From: Nematostella vectensis
Taxonomy: Eukaryota
Length of the DNA: 64,000 nucleotides
Assembly (NCBI RefSeq): GCF_932526225.1
Contig: NC_064037.1
Coordinates: 3,120,996-3,184,995, forward strand
Reading direction: 5' to 3'
Below the pieces are notes generated by a model that was not told the origin of the DNA, did no database searches, and saw only the letters and a program-made list of their open reading frames with translations. Shown piece by piece: positions 8,172 to 49,990 of the stretch (positions within the stretch are counted from its first letter, which is position 1; each line of letters opens with the position of its first letter). The position numbers were made by a program, and so were the translations under genes.

Positions 8172-11100
8172 ATGGAGAGATTCATCAACAGTATACGGAC
8201 TGCCTTAAGTGACTCATATACCGAGGTGACATCGCCCTATTACAACTCACACGAAAACACCCAAGGCTACGACACTGAGCTAAACTACACCTTCCCACCT
8301 ACACCACCCCACCATACGGACAAGCCACTTACACGTCTGTCAGCCAACCCGTCTCAACTAGAAAAAACACTAAGGACCATTGTCTTGGACTTGTACTCTG
8401 AAGCAGAGCCCGACAAGCAACCGAAACTCAGCACAGAATCTCCGGCTGTACAGTCTGACTTCGGCGTTTCCCTTTCTTCGACCTTGAGTTCTGACGTCAT
8501 AGATGTCATGGAAAAGGAGCAAACTAGAGACCATTATAAGACTACAGGATCTAACATATCTAGTCTAGAGGCCTATGTTAAAGCGCCTTGTCTCAGCGGT
8601 TTAACAGGTGTCCAGGGAAGTGGTATCGGGGGCACTTATATTGGTGGTACATCAGCAGGTTACCAAGGATATGGTGCCGAGGGCACTTATATTGGTGGTA
8701 CATCAGCAGGTTTTCAAGGACGTGGTGCCGAGGGTACTTATGTTGGTGGTACATCAGCAGGTTTTCAAGGACGTGGTGCCGAGGGCACTTATGTTGGTGG
8801 TACATCAGCAGGTTTTCAAGGACGTGGTGCCGAGGGCACTTATGTTGGTGGTACATCAGCAGGTTTTCGAGGACGTGGTGCCGAGGGCACTTATATTGGT
8901 GGTACATCTGCTGGCGCCCAGGGGCAAGGAACTAAGGAGAATTCCTCAGAGGACTCCTCAAGAATTCAGACCGTTCAAGAGCTAAGAGGGTGCCTTGAGC
9001 GGCTACAGTTCACGGATATCACAGGTGAGTTCCCCCTTTTGGAGTCCCCCGCTTTTGAACAAATAAAATATTTCACAAACTAAATTTCATTACATTTGTA
9101 TCTATAGAAGCAGTGGTAACTCCCTATGCCTGTCCCTTTTTTATTTACTGTACAAAAGGGTAAAAAGAATTGTTGAGTTGAGGATTCTAAAGCAAGTTCC
9201 TAATTTGCCGCAGACCAAACTGCCAACAATGTGGATCGCTTGGCGCTTCACATTTTAGACGACACAAAACTATGGGGATTTTATTGAAGCATGAGCGTAG
9301 TGAAGTCGTTTAGAAAGACAAGTATACATAAAATAGCCGTGCAAAATATTTCTCTATTTCCCATTTTATCAATACCGCAAGAGTTAAACCAGTCACAATT
9401 TTTTGTCTATTTTCCCCATTTTATTCTAGACTTCAAGAGTTAAACCCGAGTCACATTTTTTTCTGTTTTCTCTTTTTTCGTAGACCCTCAGCTCAACATC
9501 AGTTTCTCAGAATCTGACACCGTGGCCACGCCCACTTTCGACGACTCAGGCGTTCACCTTGAATTCGTCACGTCAGATCAGGAAATGTCGGACAGCGAAC
9601 CGGACGGGGTGGGGCATGTGGCGTCCGTGTCACGTGGTGAAGATCGAATAAATCAAAGTGTTACTATAGACAAAGAAGTAGGACGAACTATTTGTAGTGA
9701 CAATCCGAAATCCCCGATTGGACTTGAAAATGAGAATGGATTCCAATTTCAAGAGCAGCAACTCCCAACAAAAACAGACGATAAACAGCCCTCGACACAA
9801 GCATCATCAGAGATGGTAAATCCCAGCCATGTTTCGGTTAGTTTCTTCGGGTCTCCTGTTGATGGTAAGAGTTATGACGTCACAACTCAAGGCGAATCAC
9901 AGGGATCTCTAGCAGTACTCCAGGGACTGGGTTCGGTTTACTCCGCAGACGACAGCAATGGTGATTCACAGCATCGACAATTGATTTTCGAGCGCGCTAA
10001 CCTAGAGGGAAAGCTCGAAGCTTTGACCGGCGAGTACAACAGTATTCTTGCAGAAAGGAAAGAGTTACACGCACAACTGCGAACGTTGCAAGCAAGGTTG
10101 CAGGAAACGGTTGCAAATGCAAGAATAACAGAGTCCTGTATAGATGAAGTGAAAGACACAAACGACTCAAGGAATGATTTCCTCCACGAGGAAATTGCAG
10201 AGTTGCAGGAGTCTCTCAACGCTAAGGAATTGCGTCTGAATGAGGCTCAAGAAAGGTTGAAGTTCTCCACCACAAATGTGCAGCGATTAGAAGAAACAAT
10301 AGCTAATTATGAATCTGGAATGAGAACAAAGGATGTTAACATTACAGAGCTTGAAACACAGCTTGGAAATATGCGGAAATCGCTAGAACAATCAAGGCAA
10401 CATCAGCAACGTTTTGTTCAAGGAGAGCAAGAACTCAACGCGGATGTGTCTTCTTTGCTTAACGCCAAGGCGTGGTACCAGCGGCAGCTAGAGATCGCCA
10501 AGGAATCGAGGGTAAAGCTACAACTCGAGGTCAGCGAATACGAGTCCACTATTGCCTCACAAAACAAAATGGTGGAGCAGCTGAAATGCGAGAATGCCCG
10601 TACTAGTAAACAGCTCCTCGAAACGCAGCAGAGGACTCTAGAAGAAAAAACGCGCATTCTGAAACATTTGGAGAACGTGGAAGAAGATATGATGAGACAT
10701 GAAGCGGCATTTAAACAATTTCAACTCGAGAAACAGAGCGTTGAAAGGGGCTTATGCGGAAAGATCGAGGAAATGCGCGCGGAGAATGAGCACCTGAGGA
10801 GTTTGAGTGGATCTACTAAAGATCTGGAAACCGAAATTGAAGCATTGCGCAGGGATACGTGCCTAAAGGAGGCTGAAGTGGCAGATCTCCAATCGGAAAA
10901 AGACGAAGTCTTGAAACAGTTGAAGGTAGCGAGGGGGGTGAATGAGATCAACAACAAAAAGCTGTCAGCGCTGGAGCAGAAACTACTGTCGAAGAATGAA
11001 GAGCTGAGAGGAATGGAGGACAAGGGGCAGATATCTGCGGGTGAAATTAAAAGGCTGCAAAGTGAGAAGCGCGAGCTGGAAATGCAACTAAAGGAAGCAG

Positions 11101-15805: not shown

Positions 15806-18800
15806 CTACAACTCATCTTGTGGATATCTAAGGGGGCTCCCTGTGGTTCCCGACGTCCTTGTGTCGTATTTAACAATCGCGTCTAGCAGTTCATCTCCTG
15901 TGGACGTGGGAATCTGATCGAGGGTGATGTTCGAATATCGCTGGCGCAGTATGAAGGCAGCGGCTTTTGGTTGGCGTGCACGTGTAAAGATACCTTTCTT
16001 GTTGCCTGCCACACGTTTAGCACCTGACAACAACCAGAAATGTTAATCAAACATGTCAATTTAGACATGTCAATCTAACTTGTCAGTTTAGACATGTCAA
16101 TGAGATAAGTAATTTAAAAATGTCAATCAGAAATGTCAAACAGATGTCAATCAGGCATGTCAATTTGATATGTAAATTTACATGTGTCCATCAGAATTCC
16201 TCAATCCGGCGTTTTCGTTTCGTTAGTTTGAAGTCTGTTATGAACAAGATTGACAGCGAAATTGTTTGTTCTATATGATTTCTTTGGTTGCTTTATCCCC
16301 CCCCTTTTGTCCTCCACCAGCGAGGTCTCGATCAAGTAAGTAGGAAATATTATAATACTTTGTCTTCACATACAGTACAAAAACCGCATTGTCAATAAAC
16401 GAGACATGATTGCAATAAATTTAGCTTTGATTAATTAAAATCCTGCCCACTTATTTCATCGATCAGCCTGATTGTTGAAAATGGGTGGTTCTTGTATGCG
16501 CGTTTTACAATATTTGATCACTAAAACATTTTTGGGCAACTTAAAAGATTGCTTCGAGGGCGACTGTACTTTGTGCCGTGTTGAAATCAGCAAAATTCCA
16601 GATCATCTCTCCGACAAAGAACTCCTTCCTCAGTTTGTCAAAAACCGGAAAATATTGCTGAATGGTCTCCACCTAAAACACAAGCAGAGATGATTTATTT
16701 TATTATTTATCACGAGATTCTTATAAGTCATCACAGTAAGCTGATAATAAAACGTTGAGTATGTATCAAGAAAAAGTGTCCTCGGGGTAAGCTAAAAAAA
16801 AGTCCTTATTTGGGCAATTATTGAAAGTTGGCATATATTATAGTTTTAGAAACACCAAAATAGGCGAATAATCATCAAATAATACAAATTAGATTTAGAA
16901 AAGATAGAACATCTTAAAACTTGTGTTGATGATTTTATTTGTCATTGAGGAAGCTTAGAAGCAGTCACATTTTAACACAGGAAGCTCAGAGTTACTCCAG
17001 CAAGTAGACTATCCTGGGTACCAGAGGCCCCAGCTTTATCACTCCTTGACTGTCACGCCGGTCTTGGCTACGAGGAGGGAAACTCCTTTATTATTATTAT
17101 TATATTGTATTATTATCGTCCCTCGTAGTCGAGACCGGCGTGTTAGTAAACGAGTGAAAGCTCGAGCCTCTGGTACCCAGGTTAAGTAGCAACCAATACA
17201 TTGATATCAATCTACTCGTACCTGGTACTCCTCTGTGAACATCAGTGCTGGTGACTAGATTAGAGAAAGCTTTAGTATGGCTAACCTTTCCAATACGCGG
17301 TGTATTCTACACTCGACCGAGAACACGAGCAAACGCGGAAATAAGGCAAAGAGAGGAGGAGGCAGTCCTTCCATCTCCTTGCCTTCTTTAAGCTCAGGGG
17401 TAGCCGCCTAAAATCGTGCTGGAGGTCGAAATTTGTGTTTTTATATGTAAGTGATTTGGAATTAACATTGGGCAGTTTGAGCTTTTTAGAGAATTTCATA
17501 AGGGGGGGGGGGGGGGGGGGGGGAGAGGGAGGCAGGCAGGCCACACACCCACCGGTCACACCCACCGAGTGTAATCCCGCGATTGTATCTGCTCCATACT
17601 CTGCCATTATGACCGGCTTGTTGTATTTCTCGTGAAAAGCTCGCAGGTCTCGCTCTAGTTGACGGCTTATCAACTGAGTTCCTCCAAAATCCGCGTACCA
17701 GCCGTAATAGCGGTTGAACATGATGACGTCACTGAGCCTCGCCTGAGACAAATAATAAATTATTTCGTCACAATCATAACACAGGGGGCCAAAGGCAAGC
17801 AAATTCGTGGGAAAAAAATATAGCGACCAAGATAATTTTATTGTGATTCTCCCATTATTTCTTTTTTTTTCGGATAGCATGATCATATAATAAAAAACAC
17901 AACTTGAGAGGGAGCTTTCTCACCATAAACCAGGAAACCCAGGTTGCCATGAATTTCATAACTCTGTAGATATTTGTCTCCTTTTCATTCTCCAAGCCCT
18001 AAAAGCTAAAAGCAAATCCCGCATCCCGCGCGACATTTCTTAATTCCCGCTCGTGCCCCCCTTGTATCCGGCCCTCATTTCGGAAATGTTTATTTTCAAT
18101 ATTCCATGCCGATCTCAAAAAGAAAACAAGGGCTGGGCGAGTGCAATCCTCCTGTAAACTTACAGTGGTAACGCAACACGTGACAGGGCTGAGAATAGTC
18201 TTGGTCTACCTGTGGTAAATACCCGAGGTCAAATAGACTACAATCACCCACCGACCTCGCATCCAAGATCGACTGCAGAAAGCTGGCTTTGTTGTTTATG
18301 TACAGCATGAAGAGTGTAGAGCTCTGTGCGTGTGATACACCACATAGAGTGGATAGTTACTGGTCGTGGTTTGAATCCTGTACCCATCACAATAGTTTAG
18401 TCTAACTGTGATAAATACCCGAGGTCAAGTTCGCAGGCTGCAATCACCCACCGACCTCGCATGCAAGATCGACTGCAGAAGGCTGGCTTTGTACAGCATG
18501 AAGTGTGTAGACCTCTGTGTGTGTGATACACCACATAGCGTGGATAGCTACTGGTCGTGGTTTGTATGCGTTGCTGCCCTGGTAGCTGAAGGAGTTTACC
18601 TAAGTATCACCTACTGTTCTGGGATAGTTCTACCGGTTTTGATGGAAGAGTTCAAGCGAAGTAGACAAGATGTTGGTGAGGGTTTGCTCAAATAGCGTAC
18701 ACAAAATACACAAGTTTGTAAAAGATAAATCGTCACGATAAAATTGATTTTTATTTTTATTAAAATAGTTCTGTTTCGTCCATTTTGGACTTTACTCTAC

Positions 18801-21800
18801 AAATAACCAAATAATAAAGCAGGCTAATTTGATGTCATTGGGTGACATAGGTTGAAAATTTTATTTAAATAGTTATGCTTTGCCGATTTTTAATGACAGT
18901 ATTCGGCGCTTCCTTTTTTCAAGTATATAACAAGTCTTGAGAATGTTACCTCCTTGCAAAAACTGACCCATTTTTAGCGTTGCCGTGAAATATTTTCCTT
19001 ATCTCACCTTGAATAAACTGTTCAAGTTACGGCATATCATCGCCAAAATGTTGTTGCGGCGACACGAATCGAAAACAAAATCCTAATCTCGTTTGGTTGT
19101 AGTCAATCAAACAAGACAATTAAATCAGCCATCAAATTATTTTGTGTAATAGGATAAAATGTTATTTTTCAACAAAAATATTCCGCTTTTCTTTTGTACA
19201 CCATCAATAAATACCGATTTTTCTGAATTAAGTCGACCCCCTGGGAAAAACAATACACATATACGTGACATATTTCATCCGTTCTTCCCGTTATAGCTTG
19301 GATAGGATCATTGGCAATCGCGCTTGCATTTGGAGCATCACCGCTGGCGGCTGGCTTGTGTGCTAAGCTAGGCTGTCGTCCAATAAGCATACTGGGTCTC
19401 TTGGTAAGCTCAGTGTCTTTGGTTGCAAAATCATTCTCTTCATCATTCTCGCTACTTGTCGTCTTCGGGATAACATATGGCCTTGCGACAAGTTGTATCC
19501 ATGTGTCAAACATGCTTACAATCTCACGTTCCTTCGAGAAGCGTAGAGCGCTCGCCACAGGAATCGTTTCCGCTGGTCCGTCGCTTTTTGTTCAGGGAAT
19601 GGGACCTCTCGTCGGGTGGCTGACATCTACATTCGGATGGAGAAGTATGTACCGGATAATCGCCTCGTTTTTTGGCGTAGCGCTGGTTTTGACGTCTGTG
19701 AGTTTTGGCTCCAACATAAAAGATCCCTCGGAGGAAAAGGTTACACAGCTACATACGACTGGGAAATCAGCTCAAATGGGACAACAAACCGCAAATGTAT
19801 ATGGGCCAGACATTGCGCAAAGAAAAACGGTCGATAAAAACGCGACCCTATATCACAATCCGGGTGGGGCAGCGAGACTATTTGAAGAGGAAATTCTTCT
19901 AGAGAAGGCAGAAACTTCATCCGTGGAATGCTCGATGGAGGGCTTGAAAAATGACGCAAAATTTGCGGAGAACTCATTCGAAGATCGGCTGCTTGAAGAA
20001 AATGAAAAATTTCAACTATTCCACTTCTCTACTGAAGAGAACAAGAAAATTAATGAACAAGAAGTGCAGTATGACGAGCTAAAATTAGCGGTGGAAAATG
20101 ACGGCTCACTTGCTAAAGGGAAATGGCGTTCCGGCATCTCTTGTGATCAGAATTTTTCATTCATAAAGAGACCAGCTTACATTTGCACTGTGGTAAGCAT
20201 CACCTTATCCGGAGTTGGCATCTACGCTCCGTTTTTTCATTTGGTAAGTTGATATTTAAAAAAATAGCAGATAAAACAACGATGGACGATAGAAAAAACT
20301 CGTGAAATGGAAGTTCTCTTATGCAGGTTAAACATTGCGAGGAGGTTGGGCTGTCGTCAAGCGAGGCGTCCACGCTGTTCATTCACATCGGCATTTCTTC
20401 CCTCGTTGGTCGTATTCTCAGTGGTCAAATCGTCGACGCCTTCCACATCTCCCCCCTCAAAATCCACCAATGTGCTGACTTCATTTGCGGTGGCTCCATG
20501 CTCCTTATATGGCTCGCGAGTGACTATTTATCGTTTTCCGTGTTCGCAGTTGTTTACGGACTGTCGAATGGGGCGTACGTGACGACAATGTATTTGGCTC
20601 TGATGAATACAGTGGATGCGAGGGACAGACCGATGGCGTTTGGCTTAGGGGAGATGTTATGTTCTGCTGGGATTGTTATAGGCCCTGTACTTGCAGGTAA
20701 GACGGCCATGCTTGCGAAGTTAAGACCGACATGCACTTCGAGGGTAAGACCGAGATGCAATGCGAGGGTAAGACCGACATGCACTTCGAGAGTCGGACCG
20801 ATATGTATTGCGAGAGTAAGACCGATATGCACTGCCAGAGTAAGACCGACATGCACTGCCAGAGTAAGACCGACATGCACTGCCAGAGTAAGACCGATAT
20901 GCACTGCCAGAGTAAGACCGATATGCACTGCCAGAGTAAGACCGACATGCACTTCAATAGTAAGACCGACATGCACTGCGAGGGAAACCGACATGTACTT
21001 CGAGAATGAGACCGACATGCCCTTCAATATGAAGACCGACATGCATTGCGAGAGTAAGACCGACATGCACTGCATATCAAACATATTCCCCACGGATAGT
21101 GTCCTTCGTATGCATTGCCTTATATGGGCATTGATGCCCATATTTAGAAGAGCTAAAGTTTTCCCGCTCCCTGATCTCCAGAAAACATGGTGAAAAATAC
21201 TGATTCCTTTCAATTTGAGACTCGAGGCAAAAATGTGTCAAAAAAACTTTATCGCTTGGTCAAATCTTTATCACACAAGTCTTGAAAAGCCCTTAGACCC
21301 AGGCCTCCAAGAGATTGGCCGAGCGAGATTTAAGGTCACCCAAATATTGATATGGAGAGAAGACCGACATGCACTTCGAGACAAAGACCGACATGCACTT
21401 TGAGGGTAAGACCGACGTGCACTTCGAGAGTTAGACCGACATGCACTTCGAGAGTTAGACCGACATGCACTTTGACATGTAAAACCGACATTGCGAGAAA
21501 AAAACTCGATACACACACATTGCACTGTTTGATTTGGCAATGGACACTGATGAAGAGGAAGTAATTTTAAAACGTCTGCGAAATCGACTTTAGTTTAGCG
21601 CATATTATCTGTATTTTAATTTACAATAATCGTATTTACCAAGCGTCAACCGCTACAGCACCCTCTTTGTATAAATTATGCTGCAAGGGAACGACCGGCA
21701 TAAACTGCGAGATAACTAAGGCTAAATTCGCTGCTTGTTTTCCAGGTTTGATAGCAGATAAGACGGGTTCATACGTAGCAGCGTTCGGTATGACGGGAGG

Positions 21801-24800
21801 TGTTACAGTATTCGCGGCTTTTGTTCCGCTAATTCTGTTATGCCGCGCACAAGAGAGAGACAGGGCAGCATGCCACAGGGTGCCCATAACTAACCTCGAG
21901 GGACTGATAATCGTCGAAAGGGAAACCGTCTTATGATTTAGACAAAGACATTATATAAAAGGTTTAATACCATCTTTATAAGCAGCAACAATTCGTTAAT
22001 AAACTTTTTTACTGTAAAAATAACCACCACCATTATCAGTCACCATCATCATCACTATAATCACCACTAATATCGTCTTTTTCAACTCACCACTCTGTCG
22101 AGAAAGGCGCGGTATTTCGTGACATACGTGACAGGTCGCGTGACATCCATGGAGCGAACTTCTTCGAATATCGGCCTGTACAAAACAAATCAAGCACATT
22201 CTCAATAAGTACAATATTTAAGGCTTTGTACATCTTAGAGAACATTTTAGATTCTATGCGCTGGACCGAAAACAGTATCTGACGTCATATATTATCCGTA
22301 ATATTTCGTAATATGGCCCGACAACTCTAACTATAGTATAATCGTGCGCTTACAAAACAAACCATAATATTGTTGTTAAAAATGTCTAGTAAAGACATGT
22401 ACAATTAATGGAAGATGCCTATATGAATAAAGAAGCCATTAAATAAATGATTCCGTCCAGCTCGCTATAAATTACACAAGGTTTCCGAATGAGTGAAAAG
22501 TGATAGCAAAATGGCGGAGCACTGGAAACTAGGTAGTGTTTATCAGTGGCCTAAGCCATTGGTTGTCGAAAAGTATAAATTTCACATCAACCGGTTACGT
22601 GAGCGGATGACGTACTTGAAATAGTCAAGCGAGGCTGGCTTGTCCGTGGGAGGCTCGTTGGCTACCGACCACATGACAACCGCTGGACGGTTTTTATCGC
22701 GGCGCACAAGCTCCATCATCTCTTGCGTGTGACGCTTCTGGAGCTCTGGGGTAAGGTTCGCACTGCAACATAGGGAAAAAAATCGATCAACCACTCCTTT
22801 GTTATTGTTTATAAATGAAAATGCGACGGTTTATTTGCAAGGAGACTTCAAAATTACAATCAACGAATGAAGTCTGATACTTTATCAATGATATTTGATA
22901 GAAAGTTTCTCAGTTATTTGCTTGAATTTGCCGATGGAAATGGATGCTTTGTGTGACTCGGCATTGAGCGGGAGAGTAAAATGACGGCGTGATTGCCCTT
23001 TTTTAAGATTCTTTTAATGAATCGGTTGAAACAGTAATAATGCGCAACTAATCTATTGTGCTTACTAGTTTTCGAAATTAACAGTCCACGTTTATTTGTT
23101 GTTATGAAGTGCGGTAAATTCCACACACAAAAAACTTGTTTCAGCGCCATGTCCCATTAGCAACACATGTGTTATTGTTTCATGCCATATTGGAAGACAC
23201 ATTATGTCAAGAAATCTCGGAACAACCTCCCGTCAACCTAAAATCAGAGTTTCATACTTTATTTACCAAATAAGTTCGAAAATACCACAATAGCTTCGCA
23301 TTCAGCCCATGGAAATGTTGATGTTTTTACCACACTTGATACTTTGACAAATTATCTTTAAAGCCGGCCACACAGTACGAAATACCACATCAGGGGCTGA
23401 ACTAGAAGTAACAACCTTTATTTTGATATATCGACAGTTTATATCGAATATTTTTTTCTAAGTGAAAAAAAATAGTAATCTTATAAGGACTGGGCTTCCC
23501 ATACCTAAGAAAAAGTGGTGTATAAAACAAATATGGTAACAAATGTTGGTAACCCATCGACTCGAGTTTTCGTGACGTGATGTCCGTCCGTCCGTCGACA
23601 ACCAAACTTGGCAGGTGTCATGTATGTGTCAAGGGAGGGGCAAATTGCGGTCAAGTGATTTGTGACGTCATCGATGACGTCACTAGAAGCAAAAATATGC
23701 TGACGTCATCAAAATAAAAAATATTTATATTTCACGAAGTAGACATCATATGGCAACCAATCTCGGTAGGTGTCATGTAGGTGTCAAGGGGGATGCAACA
23801 ATATGGTCACGTGATTGTGACGTCATCAATAACGTCACTAGAAGCAAAATATGCTGACGTCATCAAAATAAAAAAACATTCAAATCTCGTGAAAGAAACA
23901 TTGTATAACAACCAAACTTGGTAGGTGTTTATGCATGTGTCAAAGGGCGGTGTCAAGTTATGGTCACCTGATGCGTGACGTCATCGATGACGTCACTTTA
24001 AGCAAAACTATCCCGATTTCACATCTATATTCATATCTCCTAAACGAAACATCATATGACAACCAATCTTGTTATGTGTCATGAAGGTGTCAAGGAGAGT
24101 GCACCAATGTAGTCACGTGATTGTGACGTCATCAATGACGTCACTAGAAAAAAAATATGCCGACGTCATCAAAATAAAAATATGAAATATATATATTTTT
24201 TATTTCATTAAAGAAACATCGTGTGACAACAAAACTCAGTAGGTGTGATGTATGTTTCAAGTGGGGTGCAATGAAATAGTAACGTGATGTCATTGATGAC
24301 GTCAATAAATTAACTACCCTGACTCCAAAAGATCGTATAACAATTAAATGTGTTACGTGTCATGTAGTTGTCAAGGTTGGGGGGAAGGGGGTCGCGTGAT
24401 CTGTGAAATCGTTGACATCGTCAAAAACAGAAAATATAATATATTTAATATTTCTTTATCTACCACAGCCTGTCGTACTTAGAATAAAATCTAAATTAAA
24501 GTTTTGAAACATTCAGTTTGGACATATATCGTAAGATCCCCGTTTTAAGTCATTACTGTTTGTTTAAGTGCCCGCTTGTAAAATAAATCCTTCTGAAAGC
24601 AAGTTCATTAGTACTTCACACAGCTAACACCGCCGATTGACTATTAAGCGGAAATAAGCAAAGATTTGGTCGTTTGGAGCTCCGCTTTTAGGCAATGCCT
24701 AAATCTATACATTATCTTGAGCATTAGTAAGTCCAGAGTCACAGCACAGTCACATCTATCACGAAAAAGCATATTTACAAATTGTTTTTCTGTGACATGG

Positions 24801-27800
24801 TTTTTAATTGCGCTGTTTTCGGCTGCACGAGCTCCCCTATACCTGGGAAGATCACCCCTTCGAAAACGGTGAGCGATCAGAGGCAAAGCGACGCAGAAAG
24901 GGCTGGGTAAACTTTGTTTCGCGAACTCGTGCCCACTGGAAGCCCACGGACAACACACGTGTCTGTTCGGAACACTTCGGTGTTTCAGACTTCTCAATGC
25001 GATATGATTTAATGGAGGGTACGTTTAACATCAAGAAACTTCGCAATGCGATATGATTTAATGGAGGGTACGTTTAACATCAAGAAACTTCGCAATGCGA
25101 TATGATTTAATGGAGGGTACGTTTAACATAAAAAAACTTCGCAATGCGATATGATTTAATGGAGGGTACGTTTAACATCAAGAAACTTCGCAATGCGATA
25201 TGATTTAATGGAGGGTACGTTTAACATCAAGAAACTTCAGATGGATGAAATCGGTATTGTGGCAATACCGTCGATTTACCCGAAGGGAAGCGACGAAAGA
25301 CCAAGCTCATCTAGAGATCGACGAATGGTATGTTTATCGCAGTTGTGCCAAAATTTGATTTGTTTCGGTTCTTGTATATAATTATCCAGGACTGAGTTGA
25401 TCATAGTTTTTGATTACTTAAATATAGGAACTGCGAAAAATTTTAACAGAGTCGAAAGAAAATATCGAAGGTAAGTTTTTTTAATCGACAGGATGATTCC
25501 TTGAGACGTGTCACTTTAGTCCGAAGTTGGATTTTCAAATTATTATTATTGCTTTATCTTTGTTTTTTTTTTTTTGTATCGTTGGTGTTGCAATACCATC
25601 AATGTTATCACGGAAGAGTGGTGATTTTAATGATTTTAATATGTATTAAAATACATAGCCTTTCTCTAACAACACACACGCAACAGAATATTTAACAAAA
25701 TATATAAAACGAGAGTTATAGTTGATATTATTTTTTATTCTAAAAATAAAGAGAAGTCATATCATGCGAGAACAACGATGGTGATCATGATGAGCAGATC
25801 ATTACAAAAAGCAAAGTAAGTCTTTTTATATTGATTTTTTTTGTATTGTCTTTTTTATTTGTGTGGTGGAATGGAGCCATTTTCTTTCAAATGTGATATT
25901 TCTTTATCAAAATTGCTTTACCCCTGTACTAGTTACAACAATGAATTTAAATTGTACGTAATTTGTTGCAAATCAATAAATCATGTGGATAAATAAAAAA
26001 ATGTGAATTTTCTATTTTACCCAATAATTTATCGGTTAATTCCCTGTCTTATACATATTGTTGAAATTTCTTATTTCAGAACTATAAAATGCAGAACGAA
26101 CCGGTGGCTTGTGAAAGGTGCTCTGAACTTTCACATAGGAATCGCAAGATTCGTAATCAGTTAATTTACCAAAGGCTGCAGTCCATCAAGTTCAGGGCAA
26201 AAATAAAGAAGCTAACACGTGGTATGTACTTTTTTCACCCCCATTTTTAGCAGAAATTGTGGAAATGTTGGGTTAGTGGTTGTTTATATCTAATATGTAT
26301 TTGTACTCACGGCTCAATGCCCACAGCCGGACACTCATCGATGACTACTATGCCTGTCCGGTCGGCCATGTCCATGATCTCCTCGGCGTACGGGTAGTGA
26401 CTAGTCCGGAACGAGTTACCTCCTAGCCACTTCATCAGGTTGAAGTCCTTGGCGATAATCACGTTATCGACTCCTTTACCTCGAATCTGAAAAAAAAAAG
26501 ATATCTTAAAGGCTCCGTTTGGCGCACAGCTTCCAATAAGCATCCCTCTTCGAATTAGCGCCCTCTCCCCACTTCTGGATATATTTGCAAGAATAGCCGA
26601 ACACAAGGCTTTTCTGTTTTATAACCCGTTAGTTACCGTTTTTATAGAACACTGAGAAAAGAGTACTGAGCAATTTTAAGTTGTTCTTGTTTCAAATCTA
26701 CAATTTAATTATCAAGCCAGGGGCGGATATAACTTGCGCCAAAGGGGTGTTTGGCTCAGTGACAAGGGGGAGGGGGTAGTTTTTTTTGTTATATGACTCC
26801 TAACGTATGATTTATTAAAGCGATGGCTCTGATGATTATTATACAAAAATTACCTCAGCGGCGAGCGATGATAAAACAGTCGATTACCCCCTCTTCTACG
26901 ATCGCCATGTTTACAACACTGTATGCCCTTTCTTTAGTCAAAACTCTCAGAGATATTCATGTATTTGCTTTACGATACAAACTTTTCGCCAAAGTGTGAT
27001 CAGATGTGGGTCTTATTCTCTGATATCCTAATAAATAGTGTCGATAAAACATAAAATAAGCCGCATACAGCATTAAGTACCGTCTTGTAGTGGCTTGGTC
27101 AATGGCGCGATAAGCCCAAATGCTTATCTACTATACTTACTTTACCATTGCTGGCCGCTAAAGCAATTTTAGTCATAAAATCCAAAAAGGCTCATCGCCT
27201 TTAAGATTCATACTATTGCTCCAGATTGCATTCAACTTTGGTCGATATTTTCGTAAAATATCATTTTCACACCCCATACTGCGCAAAAAATACAAAGTAT
27301 TGTATGGGAATCTTTACTTCCGGTGGATTTTGGTCCAGTTGGTGAAGTTCTTTGGCGCGGCAAAAAATATATTTTTTTACCAAGTTCCTTTCACCTGTCT
27401 TCGATGTGGCAAGGGGGCGTGATTAACAACAATACGGCTGCTCGGATGCCCTCCCAGGTACCAATTGCAAATACAAAGCATCTAATCGGTACTAATCATT
27501 ACAAAAGTTAATAATAATAATACTGGAATATTTGATTCTCTAAATAGGTATCGCATCTATTACTCACGTTTGCATCCTCGTGCTTGCCAAAGCCTTTAAA
27601 GTAAAACTCTTTGTCGTTGATGAGAAATTTAGTGCCTTCAACGCGTACAGTCCTTATTCCCACAGGAAGGCGGTAAACATCTTGTATGTACAACTGAGAC
27701 AACGTCGTTACCTAGAGGATACAAATTTCATCATCGACACCGTCACCAACAAAATCATCACCATCAATTAGTACCCAGGGGCGTAGCCAGGATTTGTAAT

Positions 27801-30800
27801 AGGAGGGGGCCCAAAAGGCCTTTATTTGACATTTTCTCCTAAATTTTTAAAACTGTCCCATGCATTTACTGTATTTTTGGATGCTAGAAGGGGTAGGCCG
27901 AGACCCTTGGGCCCTCCCCCTAGCTACGCCCCTGGTACTAACCGTTATCATCTGAAGACTGATTTCCATATGATCGCACACTATTTCAGCTAAATTGACC
28001 GTACGATAGCAACCGATCGCTGCTGCTTTCTATATAAACGCACGAATTATTGCTTCACCTTACAGTTCTTTAATCCCTTGGGAGTCAGGTAGGGGGGGGG
28101 GGGTCTCGTAAGTTTTTTTCTAAAAAAGGAAAGGTCAGATGTGTATGCCCCCCCTGTTTTCTTAATGTCCCTTGGCGGCCAAAAAGTGGGTCATTTCTTA
28201 TTAAGGAATCTTCAAATACGATGCTTTTTCAATATGATACCTAACCCCCCCCCCCCCCCTCCTCCCTCGGCCAATCCTGGGTACGCGCATGTCCATGTCC
28301 GTTAGGACCCTGCCATTTAACGCAACCCCCCGTACCTTGAGTGTGTACAGATATGCCGTGTTGTTGGTCATTCCAATTGGCCACCACAGGACCGGATTCC
28401 GGACAGTTAACTCTCCCTCAAACTTCTCTGTCCCTTCAACGGTTTCCACGACAAACCCCTCGTGGTCCAGTAACTCGTACTTCATATTGATGTCCCCTCT
28501 CGGAATAGACTTGATGGCACCCACCACTGACAGAAACTTGACAGTCCCGACATTACCATGGAATGACGTTGTTATGGTGATGTCAGAGAGGAAGACAACT
28601 GGGGTTGTGTAAAGTTTGACGGGGCGATTGATGCCGGCGTAATTAAAGAAGTCGAACTTGTAGGTCTGTACATTATAACCATCAGGGTGCCTGGACATCG
28701 GTAGTGACAATGAAAAAAACAAGGATACATTTATGTACATTCATGCCTTACCATACGAGTAGTACAAGTGTACATATGGGGGTACTTACTAGATGAGTGT
28801 TCACTCGAGGAGTAAATGTTATTTAATTCATGTGAGGTCGGTAGCTTATTATACGAATGTACGCGTATTCATGTGAGGCTGGTAGCTTATTATACGAATG
28901 TACGCGTATTCGTGTGAGGTCGGTAGCTTATTATACGAATGTACGGGTATTCATGTGAGGTCGGTAGCTTATTATACGAATGTACGCGTATTCATGTGAG
29001 GCTGGTAGCTTATTATACGAATGTACGGGTATTCATGTGAGGTCGGTAGCTTATTATACGAATGTACGCGTATTCATGTGAGGCTGGTAGCTTATTATAC
29101 GAATGAACGCGTATTCATGTGAGGCTGGTAGCTTATTATACGAATGTACGCGTATTCATGTGAGGCTGGTAGCTTATTATACGAATGTACGCGTATTCAT
29201 GTGAGGTCGGTAGCTTATTATACGAATGTACGGGTATTCATGTGAGGTCGGTAGCTTATTATACAAATGTACGCGTATTCATGTGAGGTCGGTAGCTTAT
29301 TATACGAATGTACGCGTATTCATGTGAGGTCGGTAGCTTATTATACGAATGTACGCGTATTCATGTGAGGTCGGTAGCTTATTATACGAATGTACGGGTA
29401 TTCATGTGAGGCTGGTAGCTTACTATATGAATACCATGAGAGGCTGGCTGCAAGCAAGTAGTGCCCATGTATGGGGGGCACATACAATCAGAAAGTGGGT
29501 GTTCCTTTTAAGTTGGTTGCAAACTATACGAATGTAAGGGTATTTACTTGGTAAAAGTGCGCTCTTGGGCGGAACAGGAGCGAGGGTGTTAAACAACTCA
29601 CCAGCTCCACGAGGACGGGAGATGTTCTACCTTCCCAGGGGGGAGGGTGGTGGGGGTGAGCGTGTTGTTGATGGCCACTGTAACCCTATTAGACTTATCG
29701 TAGCGTAGAAACTCACTGATGTCTGCCTCAAAGGCTAGGTAACCGCCCTCGTGTTCCGTCACCTTCTCGCCGTTCAACCACTGCAAGACATCCATATTAC
29801 ATACTCACGGACAAGCCGCGATGCATACGCTAAAATACAAATAAGGAATGCATACTACAAATTCGGCACTGGTGATTGCAGGCATATCGCCATGATGTTT
29901 CAGCACGGCAAGAGCGCGATGCATGAATATTGGGCCCGAGGTAAGTGACACACACGGCAAGAGCGCGATGCATGAATATTGGGCACGAGGTAAGTAACAC
30001 ACACGGCAAGAGCGCGATGCGTGAATATTGGGCACGAGGTAAGTAACACACACGGCAAGAGCGCGATGCATGAATATTGGGCCCGAGGTAAGTAACACAC
30101 ACGGCAAGAGCGCGATGCATGAATATTGGGCCCGAGGTAAGTGACACACACGGCAAGAGCGCGATGCGTGAATATTGGGCCCGAGGTAAGTAACACACAC
30201 GGCAAGAGCGCGATGCGTGAATATTGGGCACGAGGTAAGTGACACACACGGCAAGAGCGCGATGCGTGAATATTGGGCCCGAGGTAAGTAACACACACGG
30301 CAAGAGCGCGATGCATGAATATTGGGCCCGAGGTAAGTAACACACACGGCAAGAGCGCGATGCGTGAATATTGGGACCGAGGTAAGTAACACACACGGCA
30401 AGAGCGCGATGCATGAATATTGGGCCCGAGGTAAGTAACACACACGGCAAGAGCGCGATGCGTGAATATTGGGCCCGAGGTAAGTAACACACACGGAAAG
30501 AGCGCGATGCGTGAATATTGGGCCCGAGGTAAGTAACAAACACGGCAAGAGCGCGATGCGTGAATATTGGGCCCGAGGTAAGTAACAAACACGGCAAGAG
30601 CGCGATGCGTGAATATTGGGCCCGAGGTAAGTAACACACACGGCAAGAGCGCGATGCATGAATATTGGGCCCGAGGTAAGTAACACACACGGCAAGAGCG
30701 CGATGCGTGAATATTGGGCCCGAGGTAAGTAACACACACGGCAAGAGCGCGATGCATGAATATTGGGCCCGAGGTAAGTAACACACACGGCAAGAGCGCG

Positions 30801-33236
30801 ATGCATGAATATTGGGCCTGAGGTAAGTAACACACACGGCAAGAGCGCGATGCATGAATATTGGGCCCGAGGTAAGTAACACACACGGCAAGAGCGCGAT
30901 GCATGAATATTGGGCCCGAGGTAAGTAACACACACGGCAAGAGCGCGATGCGTGAATATTGGGCCCGAGGTAAGTAACACACACGGCAAGAGCGCGATGC
31001 GTGAATATTGGGCCCGAGGTAAGTAAGACACACGGCAAGAGCGCGATACGTGAATATTGGGCCCGAGGTAAGTAACACACACGGAAAGAGCGCGATGCGT
31101 GAATATTGGGCCCGAGGTAAGTAACACACACGGCAAGAGCGCGATGCATGAATATTGGGCCCGAGGTAAGTAACACACACGGCAAGAGCGCGATGCATGA
31201 ATATTGGGCCCGAGGTAAGTAACACACACGGCAAGAGCGCGATGCATGAATATTGGGCCCGAGGTAAGTAACACACACGGCAAGAGCGCGATGCGTGAAT
31301 ATTGGGCACGAGGTAAGTAACACACACGGCAAGAGCGCGATGCGTGAATATTGGGCCCGAGGTAAGTAAGACACACGGCAAGAGCGCGATGCGTGAATAT
31401 TGGGCCCGAGGTAAGTAAGACACACGGCAAGAGCGCGATACGTGAATATTGGGCCCGAGGTAAGTAACACACACGGAAAGAGCGCGATGCGTGAATATTG
31501 GGCCCGAGGTAAGTAACACACACGGCAAGAGCGCGATGCATGAATATTGGGCCCGAGGTAAGTAACACACACGGCAAGAGCGCGATGCGTGAATATTGGG
31601 CCCGAGGTAAGTAACACACACGGCAAGAGCGCGATGCATGAATATTGGGCCCGAGGTAAGTAAGACACACGGCAAGAGCGCGATGCATGAATATTGGGCC
31701 CGAGGTAAGTGACACACACGGCAAGAGCGCGATACGTGAATATTGGGCCCGAGGTAAGTAACACACACGGCAAGAGCGCGATGCGTGAATATTGGGCCCG
31801 AGGTAAGTAACACACACGGCAAGAGCGCGATGCGTGAATATTGGGCCCGAGGTAAGTAACACATACGTACCACTTTCGTGTAGTAGTTAGCGCCTTCAAA
31901 GCGGAGCACCACTCGGGTGTTAGAGTCATTCCATCTGGAAGGGACGTAAGTCTGCATGTCGTACCATGCCCAGCCGCGGAAGTCCCGGATGCCCTTATCC
32001 TGGGTTATGTCGTTATAGCTCGCAGGAACTGGCATGGGGATAACTTCACCTGACTTTAGACATGATTATTATCTTATATAAATAAGCAAATTATGCGAAG
32101 AGATCTTGAAATAAACAATGAAGTGAACCATTTCTCAAATTCAATCGAAAATATTTGATAATAAAACTACTCGAATAAAACAGCTTCCAGGCCCGTACAG
32201 TGACGTCACTGTACAGGCCCGTACCCAGGATTTTTCTTGGGGGAGTGCGAAATCCGAAAACGTGGACCAAATTTTTGGGGGGGAGAGATTGGAGGGAGTT
32301 TTCTGATAAAAATCTGACCACCCCCGTAAGAACAAAAAGGGATTTTTTATGCCTTTGCAGTATCTCCACGGACATTTATTGTCGGATTTGGCTACAAATA
32401 AAGTCTGACTTATGGATTGATGACATACCTGAGTGATCAAGCTTATGCTTTATAGTTTTGTCTACAAATAGCACGTCTATTGAGAACCAAAGTGGACTTT
32501 TGGCCGTTGTGGGGGGTTCGCAAACCCCTTTGGTACGGGCCTGGCTTCTGTTACCGGCTTCTATTTAATGACAATTTTACACTTAAAAAATATATTTATA
32601 TATAAATCGTGAAAGCACACAAAAAAACGGAAAATTTTGATAGCTCAAGAATTTTTTATACAAGAGTTTTAGCCCTGGCCAAACGAAACGCAAGCCCTCC
32701 TTCAGTAAATCCTGGATACGCGCTTGTGTGTCAAGGTGTACTAGAATGTCAGAGGCAACAATCCCTCTAGCAGAATAAACGGGTGAAATTCGACAGCTTG
32801 CCATAAAAAAAATTTTAGAATAAAACTTTGAATTTTATAAAACTTTGAATTACTTAGAAGGCAGTATTCTTTTTTTCCAACTTCGATATCTTAGTCAGTG
32901 TTATCAAATATTTTACCACCTATGGTTTTGGAATATTTTTCACAGTACAGTAAACACACGTGGCGCCTATAGTGCGAAAATGCGGCAATATCTTTCCCAA
33001 GAGAAAACATCATATAGACAAAATTAATATACCTTTTCTAGAGGTCTGCTAAACCAAGACTCTGCAAATCCAGCTTCTTTGTCTTTACTATTGTCCACCC
33101 GAAAATTCCACAATCCGCTAAGATCTTTGATCTCTCTGCTCTCTGATTCACGAGGAAACAACATTCCAGGCAAAGTGTTAGCATTACATGTGATTGTCAT
33201 GAAGATAAATGTGAGAAGTCCCTTTAAAGCACCCAT
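15806..33236 (-). CDS. GUSB: Beta-glucuronidase (GH2), 11 coding exons on the minus strand: 33033-33236 (ATG at 33236), 31871-32053, 29602-29780, 28336-28690, 27568-27711, 26311-26486, 22616-22762, 22091-22175, 17566-17742, 16570-16672, 15806-16023 (stop TAG 15806-15808). Total 1971 nt, about 656 aa
   Basis: Spliced translation aligns along its whole length with remembered human GUSB. Matching blocks include [116 protein letters not shown]...[86 protein letters not shown]. All 10 introns are GT-AG and phases are consistent. Confidence 0.9.
16035..16200. repeat. Cryptic tandem cluster of about 10 (a)catgtcaat(cag) motifs spaced 11-22 bp, in GUSB intron 10
   Basis: Direct reading: ttagacatgtcaat x3, aaatgtcaatcag and so on. 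Confidence 0.6.
16995..17185. mobile_element. Palindromic MITE-like element (TIR ctgggtaccagaggc ... gcctctggtacccagg; A/T-rich centre with (tta)n)
   Basis: Arms are reverse complements (cttgactgtcacgccggtcttggctacgaggaggg / ccctcgtagtcgagaccggcgt). Confidence 0.55.
17505..17525. repeat. G(21) homopolymer, which is poly-C on the GUSB coding strand, about 40 nt downstream of the GUSB exon 9 donor
   Basis: Direct reading. It creates a read-through ORF (17281-17886, minus) that encodes PPPPPPP. Confidence 0.8.
18212..18570 (+). repeat. Tandem duplication (~190 bp x2) of the promoter-proximal region and 5' part of exon 1 of the SLC16-like gene
   Basis: Copy 1 is at 18212-18400 and copy 2 at 18403-18570, about 90 percent identical. 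Both contain ctgtggtaaatacccgaggtcaa...caatcacccaccgacctcgcat.caagatcgactgcagaa.gctggctttgt...acagcATGaag(a/t)gtgtaga. Copy 2 continues into the real exon, whereas copy 1 diverges and hits a stop. Confidence 0.8.
18498..21936 (+). CDS. Monocarboxylate-transporter-like (SLC16 / MFS) gene, 4 coding exons: 18498-18675, 19297-20243, 20327-20696, 21746-21936 (TGA 21934-21936). It is nested antisense inside the GUSB intron between GUSB exons 22091-22175 and 17566-17742
   Basis: Translation has MCT-like transmembrane blocks ([22 protein letters not shown]; [34 protein letters not shown]; [20 protein letters not shown]) and a long hydrophilic TM6-7 loop. The C-terminal exon [29 protein letters not shown] matches the MCT1 (G)RLVDATGSYTAAFFVAGG region from memory. 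GT-AG junctions and phases are consistent. Confidence 0.8.
20697..21110. repeat. 24-bp minisatellite x~17 (gagGGTAAGACCGACATGCACTTC) starting exactly at the exon 3 donor of the SLC16-like gene; a second block of ~5 units lies at 21352-21480
   Basis: Each unit contains a GGTAAGA donor-like motif. The period is a multiple of 3, giving artefact ORFs on both strands (20554-21213 minus, 20731-21009 plus and others). Confidence 0.85.
21352..21480. repeat. Second block of the same 24-bp minisatellite (about 5 units) in the same intron
   Basis: agaccgacatgcacttcgag repeats. Confidence 0.8.
23560..24430. repeat. About 150-bp tandem repeat x6, each unit carrying a palindromic double CRE (tgtgacgtcatcgatgacgtcac), a third TGACGTCA and often an E-box cacgtg; about 400 bp upstream of the THAP ORF
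   Basis: Roughly 15-18 perfect TGACGTCA octamers in 870 bp by direct reading. Units begin caaccaa(a/t)cttgg(c/t)aggtgtcatg. Confidence 0.8.
24797..24989 (+). CDS. THAP-type zinc-finger (C2CH) ORF, first coding exon. The N-terminal [10 protein letters not shown] is in one frame and LHELP...[30 protein letters not shown] is in the +2 frame, ending at the donor GGAGG|gtacgt
   Basis: C-x4-C and C-x2-H spacing plus FHxFP-like, RRRKxW and WKPT motifs fit the THAP signature, but the two halves are in different frames with no valid intron between them. This could be a frameshift, a pseudogene or a sequence error. Downstream candidate exons 25243-25328, 25429-25471 and 26083-26222 have good splice signals but unverified frames. 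Confidence 0.4.
24985..25245 (+). repeat. 50-bp tandem repeat x5 whose unit is the 3' end of the THAP exon plus its donor (gcgatatgatttaatggagg|gtacgtttaacatcaagaaacttcgcaat)
   Basis: Direct reading; five tandem copies of the exon-end/donor junction. Confidence 0.85.
27770..27935. mobile_element. MITE family B (TIR cccaggggcgtagccagg ... cctagctacgcccctgg), about 160 bp, in a GUSB intron
   Basis: Perfect 16-bp terminal inverted repeats; a related fragment is at 26705-26770. Confidence 0.65.
28170..28290. mobile_element. Dispersed element family E (ggccaaaaagtgggtcatttcttattaaggaatcttcaaat...poly-C...ccaatcctgggtacgcgc); second copy at 63190-63330
   Basis: Two copies of ~120 bp share >85 percent identity and include a C-homopolymer. 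Confidence 0.55.
28790..29440. repeat. 41-bp minisatellite x~15 (ggtagcttattatacgaatgtacgcgtattcatgtgaggtc) in GUSB intron 3
   Basis: Direct reading; the period is 41 bp between ggtagc occurrences. Confidence 0.85.
29885..31865. repeat. 60-bp minisatellite x~33 (cacggcaagagcgcgatgc(a/g)tgaatattgggcccgaggtaagtaacaca) filling almost all of GUSB intron 2, abutting the exon 2 donor (31870) and ending about 100 bp from the exon 3 acceptor
   Basis: Every unit carries a perfect consensus 5' splice site GAG|GTAAGT on the plus strand, antisense to GUSB. The three long minus-strand ORFs (29805-31862, 29830-31929, 29900-32035) are periodicity artefacts, except that the first ~45 codons of the last one are real GUSB exon 2. 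Confidence 0.9.
32196..32549. mobile_element. MITE family A copy (see 15141-15407)
   Basis: TIR caggcccgtacccagg / cctggtacgggcctgg with a shared internal sequence. Confidence 0.65.
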
Positions 33237-47179: not shown

Positions 47180-49990
47180 ATGTACTGTAAAATTTGTCTC
47201 ATCAACCTATTGCCCTCACTCAGAAGACTGTGTTATGCACACCCTCTAACCTCCCCTCTTCTTGGTCATCCCCCTTAGAAGACTGTGTTATGCGCACCCT
47301 TCAACCTCCCCTCTTCTTTGTCATCCTCCTCAGAAGACTGTGTTATGCGCACCCTTCAACCTCCCCTCTTCTTTGTCATCCCCCCTTAGAAAACTGTGTT
47401 ATGCACACCCTCTAACCTCCCCTATTCCTGGTCATCCCCCATTAGAAGACTGTGTTATGTGCACCCTCTAACCTCCCCTCTTCCTGGTCATCCCCCCTTA
47501 GAAGACTGTGTTATGCACACCCTTCAACCTCCCCTCTTCTTTGTCATCCTCCTCAGAAGACTGTGTTATGCGCACCCTTCAACCTCCCCTCTTCTTTGTC
47601 ATCCTCCTCAGAAGACTGTGTTATGCGCACCCTTCAACCTCCCCTCTTCTTTGTCATCCTCCTCAGAAGACTGTGTTATGCGCACCCTTCAACCTCCCCT
47701 CTTCTTTGTCATCCTCCTCAGAAGACTGTGTTATGCGCACCCTTCAACCTCCCCTCTTCTTTGTCATCCTCCTCAGAAGACTGTGTTATGCGCACCCTTC
47801 AACCTCCCCTCTTCTTTGTTATCCTCCCTTAGAAGACTGTGTTATGCGCACCCTTCAACCTCCCCTCTTCTTTGTCATCCTCCTTAGAAGACTGTGTTAT
47901 GCACACCCTTCAATCTCCCCTCTTCTTTGTCATCCTCCTCAGAAGACTGTGTTATGCGCACCCTTCAACCTCCCCTCTTCTTTGTCATCCTCCTCAGAAG
48001 ACTGTGTTATGCGCACCCTTCAACCTCCCCTCTTCTTTGTCATCCTCCTCAGAAGACTGTGTTATGCGCACCCTTCAACCTCCCCTCTTCTTTGTTATCC
48101 TCCTCAGAAGACTGTGTTATGCGCACCCTTCAACCTCCCCTCTTCTTTGTCATCCTCCTCAGAAGACTGTGTTATGCGCACCCTTCAACCTCCCCTCTTC
48201 TTTGTCATCCTCCTCAGAAGACTGTGTTATGCACACCCTTCAATCTCCCCTCTTCTTTGTCATCCTCCTCAGAAGACTGTGTTATGCGCACCCTTCAACC
48301 TCCCCTCTTCTTTGTCATCCTCCTTAGAAGACTGTGTTATGCACACCCTTCAATCTCCCCTCTTCTTTGTCATCCTCCTCAGAAGACTGTGTTATGCGCA
48401 CCCTTCAACCTCCCCTCTTCTTTGTCATCCTCCTCAGAAGACTGTGTTATGCGCACCCTTCAACCTCCCCTCTTCTTTGTCATCCTCCTCAGAAGACTGT
48501 GTTATGCGCACCCTTCAACCTCCCCTCTTCTTTGTTATCCTCCTCAGAAGACTGTGTTATGCGCACCCTTCAACCTCCCCTCTTCTTTGTCATCCTCCTC
48601 AGAAGACTGTGTTATGCGCACCCTTCAACCTCCCCTCTTCTTTGTCATCCTCCTCAGAAGACTGTGTTATGCACACCCTTCAATCTCCCCTCTTCTTTGT
48701 CATCCTCCTCAGAAGACTGTGTTATGCGCACCCTTCAACCTCCCCTCTTCTTTGTCATCCTCCTCAGAAGACTGTGTTATGCGCACCCTTCAACCTCCCC
48801 TCTTCTTTGTCATCCTCCTCAGAAGACTGTGTTATGCGCACCCTTCAACCTCCCCTCTTCTTTGTTATCCTCCTCAGAAGACTGTGTTATGCGCACCCTT
48901 CAACCTCCCCTCTTCTTGGTCATCCTCCCTCAGAAGACTGTGTTATGCGCACCCTTCAACCTCCCCTCTTCTTTGTCATCCTCCTCAGAAGACTGTGTTA
49001 TGCGCACCCTTCAACCTCCCCTCTTCTTTGTCATCCTCCTCAGAAGACTGTGTTATGCGCACCCTTCAACATCCCCTCTTCTTGGTCATCCTCCTCAGAA
49101 GACTGTGTTATGCACACCCTTCAACCTCCCCTCTTCTTTGTCATCCTCCCTCAGAAGACTGTGTTATGCGCACCCTTCAACCTCCCCTCTTCTTTGTCAT
49201 CCTCCTCAGAAGACTGTGTTATGCACACCCTTCAACCTCCCCTCTTCTTTGTCATCCTCCCTCAGAAGACTGTGTTATGCGCACCCTTCAACCTCCCCTC
49301 TTCTTTGTCATCCTCCCTCAGAAGACTGTGTTATGCGCACCCTTCAACCTCCCCTCTTCTTGGTCATCCTCCCTCAGAAGACTGTGTTATGCACACACTT
49401 CAACCTCCCCTCTTCTTTGTCATCCTCCCTCAGAAGACTGTGTTATGCGCACCCTTCAACATCCCCTCTTCTTGGTCATCCTCCTCAGAAGACTGTGTTA
49501 TGCGCACCCTTCAACCTCCCCTCTTCTTGGTCATCCTCCCTCAGAAGACTGTGTTATGCGCACCCTTCAACCTCCCCTCTTCTTTGTCATCCTCCCTCAG
49601 AAGACTGTGTTATGCGCACCCTTCAACCTCCCCTCTTCTTTGTCATCCTCCTCAGAAGACTGTGTTATGCGCACCCTTCAACATCCCCTCTTCTTGGTCA
49701 TCCTCCTCAGAAGACTGTGTTATGCACACCCTCCAACCTCCCCTCTTCTTTGTCATCCTCCTCAGAAGACTGTGTTATGTGCACCCTTCAACCTCCCCTC
49801 TTCTTTGTTATCCTCCTCAGAAGACTGTGTTATGTGCACCCTTCAACCTCCCCTCTTCTTTGTTATCCTCCTCAGAAGACTGTGTTATGTGCACCCTTCA
49901 ACCTCCCCTCTTCTTGGTCATCCTCCCTCAGAAGACTGTGTTATGCGCACCCTTCAACCTCCCCTCTTCTTGGTCATATATAAATAACCC
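47180..49990. repeat. 2.8-kb minisatellite: 56-bp unit x~50 (cagaagactgtgttatgcgcacccttcaacctcccctcttctttgtcatcctcct)
   Basis: Direct reading. Each unit ends in a polypyrimidine tract plus CAG (acceptor-like). The 549-832 aa plus-strand ORFs here are artefacts. Confidence 0.9.

Follow-up and report, generated by a model that had tools for sequence, protein, structure and literature searches.

U1, whose small nuclear RNA (snRNA) has AUACUUACCUG as its 5′ end, suppresses premature polyadenylation, an activity referred to as U1 telescripting and discussed in terms of the U1-polyadenylation signal (U1-PAS) axis. Short U1-recognition motifs, i.e. 5′ splice-site motifs, have been reported to cause RNAs to be retained in the nucleus or on chromatin in mammals (bioRxiv 10.1101/310433; PMC9074902). 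Minisatellites that span a 5′ splice site, or donor, have been described in human F7 IVS7 (37 bp x 5-9), IFI6 (6-16) intron 2, CBS IVS13, LMNB2 and PDGF intron 4; in the arrays of the F7 type, the first unit contains the end of the exon together with the authentic donor, and the later units contain silent pseudo-donors in the sense orientation (PMC1557585). Tandem repeats associated with splicing variation have been termed spl-TRs (PMC10078293), and satellite DNA is a major constituent of the gigantic introns of Drosophila Y-linked genes (PMC6508621). Here we analyse intron 2 of a beta-glucuronidase gene, GUSB, in a 64,000-nt stretch of the Nematostella vectensis genome (contig NC_064037.1, positions 3,120,996 to 3,184,995; the whole stretch is called the window below, and positions are counted from its first letter). 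This intron consists almost entirely of a minisatellite, each unit of which carries, on the strand antisense to GUSB, a near-consensus donor motif. The explanation that we favour, with a probability of about 0.8, is that of a young, lineage-specific and otherwise ordinary intronic minisatellite, in which the antisense donor motif is a passenger of the amplification; its neutrality and its youth are what we infer from the observations presented below.

The host gene is a glycoside hydrolase family 2 (GH2) beta-glucuronidase lying on the minus strand, of which the open reading frames (ORFs) flanking the array encode segments. A tblastn search with the Nematostella GUSB protein gave a layout of 11 exon blocks on that strand, from 33236 to ~15836. 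When exons 1-5 are concatenated (343 aa), the best match is N. vectensis XP_048583171.1 (beta-glucuronidase isoform X2; 78% identity), and further matches are to GUSB of other anemones, of corals and of other animals, carrying the Glyco_hydro_2 domains PF02837, PF00703 and PF02836; by these protein matches the gene is a cnidarian GUSB orthologue, not vertebrate GUSB. Its intron 2 (Table 1) is bounded by the donor AAAGTG/GTACGT and by the acceptor TCTTGCAG/TGG (TTGCAG/TGG), where the slash marks the splice junction. Within it, Tandem Repeats Finder detected a minisatellite of 1,964 bp with a period of 49 bp, 40.1 copies, 97% matches, 0% indels and a score of 3648, so that the array makes up 94% of the intron. 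The initial annotation of this DNA, a note made by a model, had correctly pointed to a 2-kb tandem array filling most of a ~2.09-kb intron (1,964 of 2,090 nt), but the 33 copies of a 60-bp unit that it had described are in fact 40 copies of a 49-bp unit. Homology to the unit extends as far as intron position +4, leaving exon 2 and the GTA of the donor outside the repeat; on this side the flank of the array is only 3 nt long, and there are no terminal repeats. At the other end, a unique tail of 123 nt is all that remains of the intron to carry the acceptor.

Direct counting gave 40 units in perfect 49-bp register, which fall into 14 sequence variants. Nine of the 49 columns are variable, and the pattern of variants recurs at a lag of eight units: a three-unit variant motif present in units 23-25 is found again in units 31-33, and the mean identity between units peaks at lags of 8 and 16, all of which points to multi-unit duplication or unequal exchange. 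The commonest variant, seen in 17 units out of 40, is a CpG transition (GCGTG to GCATG). A 33-nt core of the unit has 40 matches in the window, every one of them in the array, and none in 100 dinucleotide-preserving shuffles of the window. The anatomy is therefore that of a minisatellite, i.e. a unit within the 10-100 bp range repeated head to tail, interspersed variants and signs of unequal exchange, and, as far as the structure of the array is concerned, it supports the last of the options offered initially, that of simply a variable number tandem repeat (VNTR).

On the plus strand, antisense to GUSB, GAGGTAAGT is present in all 40 units at a spacing of exactly 49 bp; in the 62 kb that remain of the window, AGGTAAGT has a single occurrence on each strand. 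The assertion that every unit carries a donor motif thus stands for GAG/GTAAGT (40/40), but the exact 15-mer that had been specified, CCCGAGGTAAGTAAC, is limited to 27 of the 40. With the U1 5′ end given above used for the pairing and the duplex energies, we found nine contiguous Watson-Crick pairs between the motif and the 5′ end of U1 in all units. The predicted U1 duplexes of the array variants range from -14.1 to -15.0 kcal/mol; the corresponding values are -15.7 kcal/mol for an ideal consensus, -5.7 to -11.3 kcal/mol for the six GUSB donors that were examined, and -12.4 kcal/mol for the donor of an MFS gene nested in GUSB. On these predicted energies, the sites of the array would be excellent U1 targets if they were present in an RNA. 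The resemblance to U1 stops at the 5′ end: there is no Rfam match at the gathering score in the window, and no U1 match at E <= 10 in the interval 29700-30300. An origin of the unit from a U1 pseudogene, or from a U1 snRNA gene, was ruled out, as neither Rfam, in the window, nor the U1 covariance model, in that interval, gave a match.

Comparison with the described systems places the array closest to intronic minisatellites and spl-TRs (PMC10078293), with which it shares a unit of 10-100 bp, a head-to-tail arrangement, high identity, an intronic location, unit variants and multi-unit duplication; it differs in that it is found in the GUSB gene of a sea anemone and fills almost the entire intron, and length polymorphism is to be expected. 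Like the arrays of the F7 type, it is placed right at the 5′ end of an intron, with a 5′ splice-site motif in every unit. However, the homology begins only at +4, with the exon and the GT of the donor outside the repeat, and the copies read in the GUSB sense have lost, or never had, the GT (best 5/11), the strong motif being antisense. Since the two features that define the F7 type are thus both lacking, the array should not be filed in the donor-spanning class. With U1 retention or telescripting elements it has in common a motif that is complementary to the 5′ end of U1 and has no usable acceptor, and this feature of the sequence is the only one that it shares with them; those elements act in RNAs known to be transcribed, usually in one or a few copies, whereas the 40 copies seen here are explained by amplification of DNA. 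Finally, as with the satellite DNA of the gigantic introns of Drosophila Y-linked genes (PMC6508621), repeats constitute most of an intron that has to be transcribed and spliced out, but the size is 2 kb instead of megabases, and the type of unit and the specialised expression programme also differ.

Because the sites were copied along with the unit, the proper question is how often a 49-bp founder would carry such a site. As a null sample, 20,000 49-mers were drawn from both strands of the window outside its repeats. Of these, 1.3% contained a GT site agreeing with CAGGTAAGTAT at no fewer than 9 of the 11 positions, and 0.1% reached at least nine contiguous U1 pairs. There are 21 tandem arrays in the window, covering 15.1% of its bases (23% in the GUSB span), and the probability of finding such a site in one or more of the 21 is ~0.24 if at least 9/11 matches are required and ~0.02 if at least nine contiguous pairs are. 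If arrays are as dense throughout a genome of several hundred megabases as they are in the window, many arrays bearing such a motif are expected. As to constraint, the block GAGGTAAGT never varies, but neither do two 11-nt blocks, at positions 7-17 and 21-31 of the unit, and a simple calculation shows that, with 9 variable columns out of 49, a clean 9-mer is expected ~13% of the time. Given this expectation and the equal invariance of the other blocks, the variation within the array provides no evidence that the motif is constrained. The 40 donor sites are best explained as a single founder 9-mer multiplied by DNA amplification, not as 40 sites that were each selected independently.

Read in the GUSB sense, the array contains a single AG in 1,964 nt, at 30819, within a lone CCTGAGG variant, and it is devoid of TAA, TAG and TGA in any frame; AATAAA and ATTAAA are absent from it on both strands. 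The dense GT/AG-like arrays that had been announced for both strands are accordingly wrong for the GUSB sense strand. The best donor-like site there, GCCGTGTGTGT, agrees with the consensus at 5 of 11 positions, as against 9 of 11 for the site on the opposite strand. The U1-like string that the initial annotation had read in the sense orientation, ACTTACCTCGG, does occur in 35 of 40 units, but to call it the exact 5′ end of U1 goes too far, for the complement of the motif shares only 9 nt with it (UACUUACCU, U1 nt 2-10) and then diverges. Judged by its letters, the array would be expected to give GUSB RNA hardly any cryptic acceptor, no donor able to compete and no signal for polyadenylation. 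A strong donor can be tolerated when it lies on the opposite strand, and we regard the orientation of the motif as the effect of a filter, not as a sign of function. As a separate observation, retention of intron 2 would extend the reading frame of exon 2 in frame through the whole array, giving an ORF of 711 aa before the stop (29900-32035, minus strand).

How did the array arise? In a contig of a related anemone (L004, ENA ERZ26858540), intron 2 is found at the identical codon boundary and in the identical phase in both of two GUSB paralogues, with lengths of ~198 and ~630 nt, and in neither paralogue does it contain a tandem array, similarity to the unit or ACTTACC. The absence of the array from these introns argues for a lineage-specific expansion. 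In that contig (2827-10576) the paralogues form a head-to-head pair, ~155 nt separating the two first exons; only one GUSB is present in the window, which has, upstream, a rhomboid gene in the place of the second paralogue. The available contig of Actinia tenebrosa begins ~615 nt before GUSB exon 4, so that intron 2 lies outside it, and two further contigs (L001 and L002), which are syntenic with the window at 34.7-40 kb and share the rhomboid neighbour, have no GUSB within 10 kb. In the 123-nt tail of intron 2, a partial copy of the unit (Table 1) gave a local alignment score of 22, where 500 shuffles gave scores averaging 13.2, with an sd of 2.1 and a maximum of 23; this decayed copy may be what is left of the founder sequence or of a unit that predates the present ones. 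The homology up to +4 and the decayed unit in the tail make the origin look local, i.e. in place. The ancestral intron 2 was probably ~175 nt long, made of 126 nt of non-repeat sequence and one unit. In the scenario that we propose, ~49 bp of local intron sequence, starting 4 nt behind the donor of intron 2, would have been duplicated in tandem, through replication slippage or as a small tandem duplication event; expansion to 40 copies and homogenisation would have followed by unequal exchange and gene conversion, and the intron would have grown from roughly 175 nt to 2,090 nt. The GUSB pre-mRNA would contain only the complement of the motif, and intron 2 would still be removed by means of its normal donor and of the acceptor in the 123-nt tail. 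The consequences to be expected are a longer intron and, probably, copy-number polymorphism, and the array is probably neutral.

The following observations weigh against an ordinary minisatellite with a passenger motif. The strength of the site is in the extreme tail of what chance provides, as nine contiguous U1 pairs are reached in ~0.1% of random 49-mers; the predicted pairing of the motif with U1 is better than that of every real donor tested in the region; and the array is CpG-island-like (GC 54%, CpG observed/expected ratio 1.34), which could mark a regulatory element. A plus-strand RNA, with its 40 acceptor-less sites, might recruit U1 snRNP and modulate GUSB through telescripting, chromatin tethering or retention, or both. 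In favour of this, every one of the 40 sites has a predicted U1 duplex energy of -14 to -15 kcal/mol; purines make up 64% of the plus strand of the array, which leaves no polypyrimidine tracts for acceptors; that strand has no AATAAA; the array is CpG-rich; and short U1-recognition or 5′ splice-site motifs are reported to retain RNAs in mammals (bioRxiv 10.1101/310433; PMC9074902). We nevertheless consider such an antisense U1 platform very unlikely. Mapping of the window ORFs and of the end of the MFS gene shows no plus-strand coding gene across the array, the plus strand of which has stop codons in all frames; the invariance of the motif is matched elsewhere in the unit; the related anemone lacks the array; one chance motif followed by duplication accounts for the count; and the cited retention mechanisms have been demonstrated only in mammalian cells. 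A U1-related function is not needed to explain the array, and, as far as can be told from the sequence, binding of U1 to an antisense RNA is unsupported. The sense strand could be invoked instead, with the 40 look-alikes of the U1 5′ end (UACUUACCU) in the GUSB pre-mRNA pairing, as decoys, with the donor of intron 2 itself or with other donors and thereby tuning the efficiency of splicing; the first look-alike is ~14 nt from the donor, and the duplex that it is predicted to form with the donor (-6.8 kcal/mol) is close in energy to that of U1 with the donor (-7.5 kcal/mol). But when exon 2 is folded in silico together with the 160 nt that open the intron, the donor is predicted to pair with upstream sequence of the exon (probability ~0.67) and not with the U1 look-alike, folds of three units are unremarkable (z = -1.8 in the sense and -0.2 in the antisense orientation), and here again the array is missing in the related anemone. 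To our knowledge there is no precedent for a decoy of this kind, and we find it hardly credible. Two candidates fell by the same folding results: masking of the donor by the sense look-alike is not predicted by the fold of exon 2 and 160 nt, and an exceptional RNA structure of the unit was ruled out for either strand by the two z values.

The composition of the array suggests yet another possibility, namely that the donor motif is irrelevant and the 2-kb block is intragenic regulatory DNA, with a role as enhancer, as alternative promoter or as methylation-sensitive element. The block is 1.4-3.3 kb downstream of the GUSB start codon, and its GC content of 53.7%, with 9.3 CpG per 100 bp and an observed/expected ratio of 1.34, stands out from the rest of the window (GC 40%, ratio 0.69). 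However, six of the seven other arrays of the GUSB span also have ratios of at least 1.0 (1.0-2.05), and a high ratio follows automatically when a CpG-containing unit is amplified. Moreover, the commonest variant is a product of CpG decay, which is consistent with ordinary gene-body methylation and erosion, and the related anemone has no counterpart of the array. We therefore give a regulatory block very little credence. Equally little is given to the arrival in intron 2 of a dispersed satellite or of a repeat borne by a transposon, although Helitron-derived and other tandem repeats are abundant in genomes of the Nematostella type (PMC11934779). In its favour there is also one weak match, to a repeat-derived ORF (P0132, E = 7e-10), which was the only one found when the 685-aa ORF of the array was compared, by exhaustive phmmer, with 1.84 billion representative proteins. 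That this ORF, from a 3.9-kb ENA contig, belongs to the same repeat was ruled out, for its period is 56 aa and the two share only a 16-aa patch. A chimeric query joining four periods of the array ORF to GUSB exon 4 matched nothing but exon 4 in a set of 5.8 billion proteins, two exact-pattern scans of the JGI metagenome contigs returned no match to the unit, and the 62 kb of the window outside the array contain no copy of it. The other arrays of the window appear to have no kinship with the unit: a relationship with the other 49-bp array (24989-25238), or with any of them, was rejected on raw best local alignment scores of 6-17. The 3-nt flank on one side, the lack of terminal repeats and the decayed local copy, which points to an origin in place, also speak against an insertion. 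The idea of a common satellite, raised in the initial annotation, thus receives no support from the window, from the JGI metagenome contigs or from the ORFs of public assemblies. The functional options listed there fare no better, considering that there is no plus-strand coding gene across the array, no excess conservation of the motif, no array in the related anemone, no relation to Rfam families or to U1, and no remarkable folding.

Table 1. Positions in the window of the main features of the GUSB locus (slash, splice junction)
Feature	Position	Strand	Description
GUSB exon 2	31871-32053	-	61 codons, ending ...ANYYTKV; from tblastn with Nematostella GUSB and splice context
GUSB intron 2	29781-31870	-	2,090 nt, phase 0; between ...YYTKV (exon 2) and WLNGEKV... 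(exon 3)
Minisatellite, 49-bp unit x 40.1	29904-31867	.	Plus-strand consensus CACGGCAAGAGCGCGATGCGTGAATATTGGGCCCGAGGTAAGTAACACA
Near-consensus 5′ splice-site (U1-complementary) motif, 40 copies	29939-31858 (first 29939-29947, last 31850-31858)	+ (antisense to GUSB)	GAG/GTAAGT(A/G)A
Decayed partial unit copy	29803-29824	-	GCATCGCGGCTTGTCCGTGAGT; in the 123-nt non-repeat tail of intron 2, ~80 nt from the array
GUSB exon 3	29602-29780	-	From tblastn and splice context; donor +1 at 29601
MFS_1 transporter gene	19311-21933	+	Nested in a GUSB intron (~17917-22084); Pfam E = 1e-17

The window contains several other arrays, some of them close to splice sites. In the nested MFS gene, a 24-bp array (20697-21073, with a second block at 21355-21491, plus strand) begins exactly at the donor CTTGCAG/GTAAGAC, and its units repeat GAGRGTAAGACC, so that the authentic donor is followed by ~15 pseudo-donors in the sense orientation; this is a true layout of the F7 IVS7 type. 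About 150 nt separate the end of the last MFS exon (~21933) from the next GUSB exon. An extension of this gene over the GUSB intron 2 array was considered and ruled out, as its last exon and stop are at ~21.75-21.93 kb, 8 kb before the array. A degenerate 13/27-bp array (16031-16180) comes to within 7 nt of the splice acceptor of the final GUSB exon. In total, three of the eight arrays of the GUSB/MFS region end at most 7 nt from a splice junction, one at an acceptor (16031-16180) and two at donors (20697-21073 and 29904-31867), compared with ~0.27 expected under uniform placement (Poisson P ~0.003, calculated post hoc on a small sample). These splice-adjacent arrays may reflect seeding of arrays near splice sites or deletion of unconstrained flanks, and they are a hint that arrays in this genome may often lie directly against splice sites.

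In GUSB intron 3, a 41-bp array of 14.8 copies (28826-29432) takes up two-thirds of the intron, with a decayed copy nearer the donor (~29510-29540). The array of intron 2 is not the largest of the window: a 55-bp unit is repeated 50 times at 47214-49977 (2.76 kb, 95% matches), each unit having on the plus strand a polypyrimidine tract followed by CAG, i.e. an acceptor-like sequence, and all three plus-strand frames being open. It adjoins no recognisable exon, by which the notion that arrays are always located at splice sites was ruled out. A coding minisatellite of 51 bp x 6 (8605-8908, plus strand) specifies a 17-aa repeat (GGTSAGFQGRGAEGTYV) in an ORF of 303 aa (8172-9083) that has no Pfam match, and at 59878-61471 related CpG-rich repeats of 22, 44 and 88 bp (TTCCGTTACGCGAGCGCGAAC...) flank a 215-bp x 3 repeat.

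The significance of the locus is small in so far as it adds one more intronic minisatellite to those already described, in which 40 donor sites reduce to one chance 9-mer that was amplified. It does provide a useful caution, which is that motif counts inside tandem repeats are not independent observations. One could go much further and propose (a) that a plus-strand RNA of the array, with its 40 acceptor-less U1 sites, is tethered to chromatin or retained in the nucleus and regulates GUSB, and (b) that the minisatellites of this genome preferentially nucleate at splice sites, a pair of propositions that we hold to be very improbable. Nucleation at splice sites, if true, would point to tandem duplication that takes place in the vicinity of splice sites, or to biased deletion, by which introns would be cut back as far as their constrained ends. 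The locus would lend itself to testing, in a natural setting, whether strong antisense U1 sites are neutral and how splicing copes with an intron that is 94% repeat.

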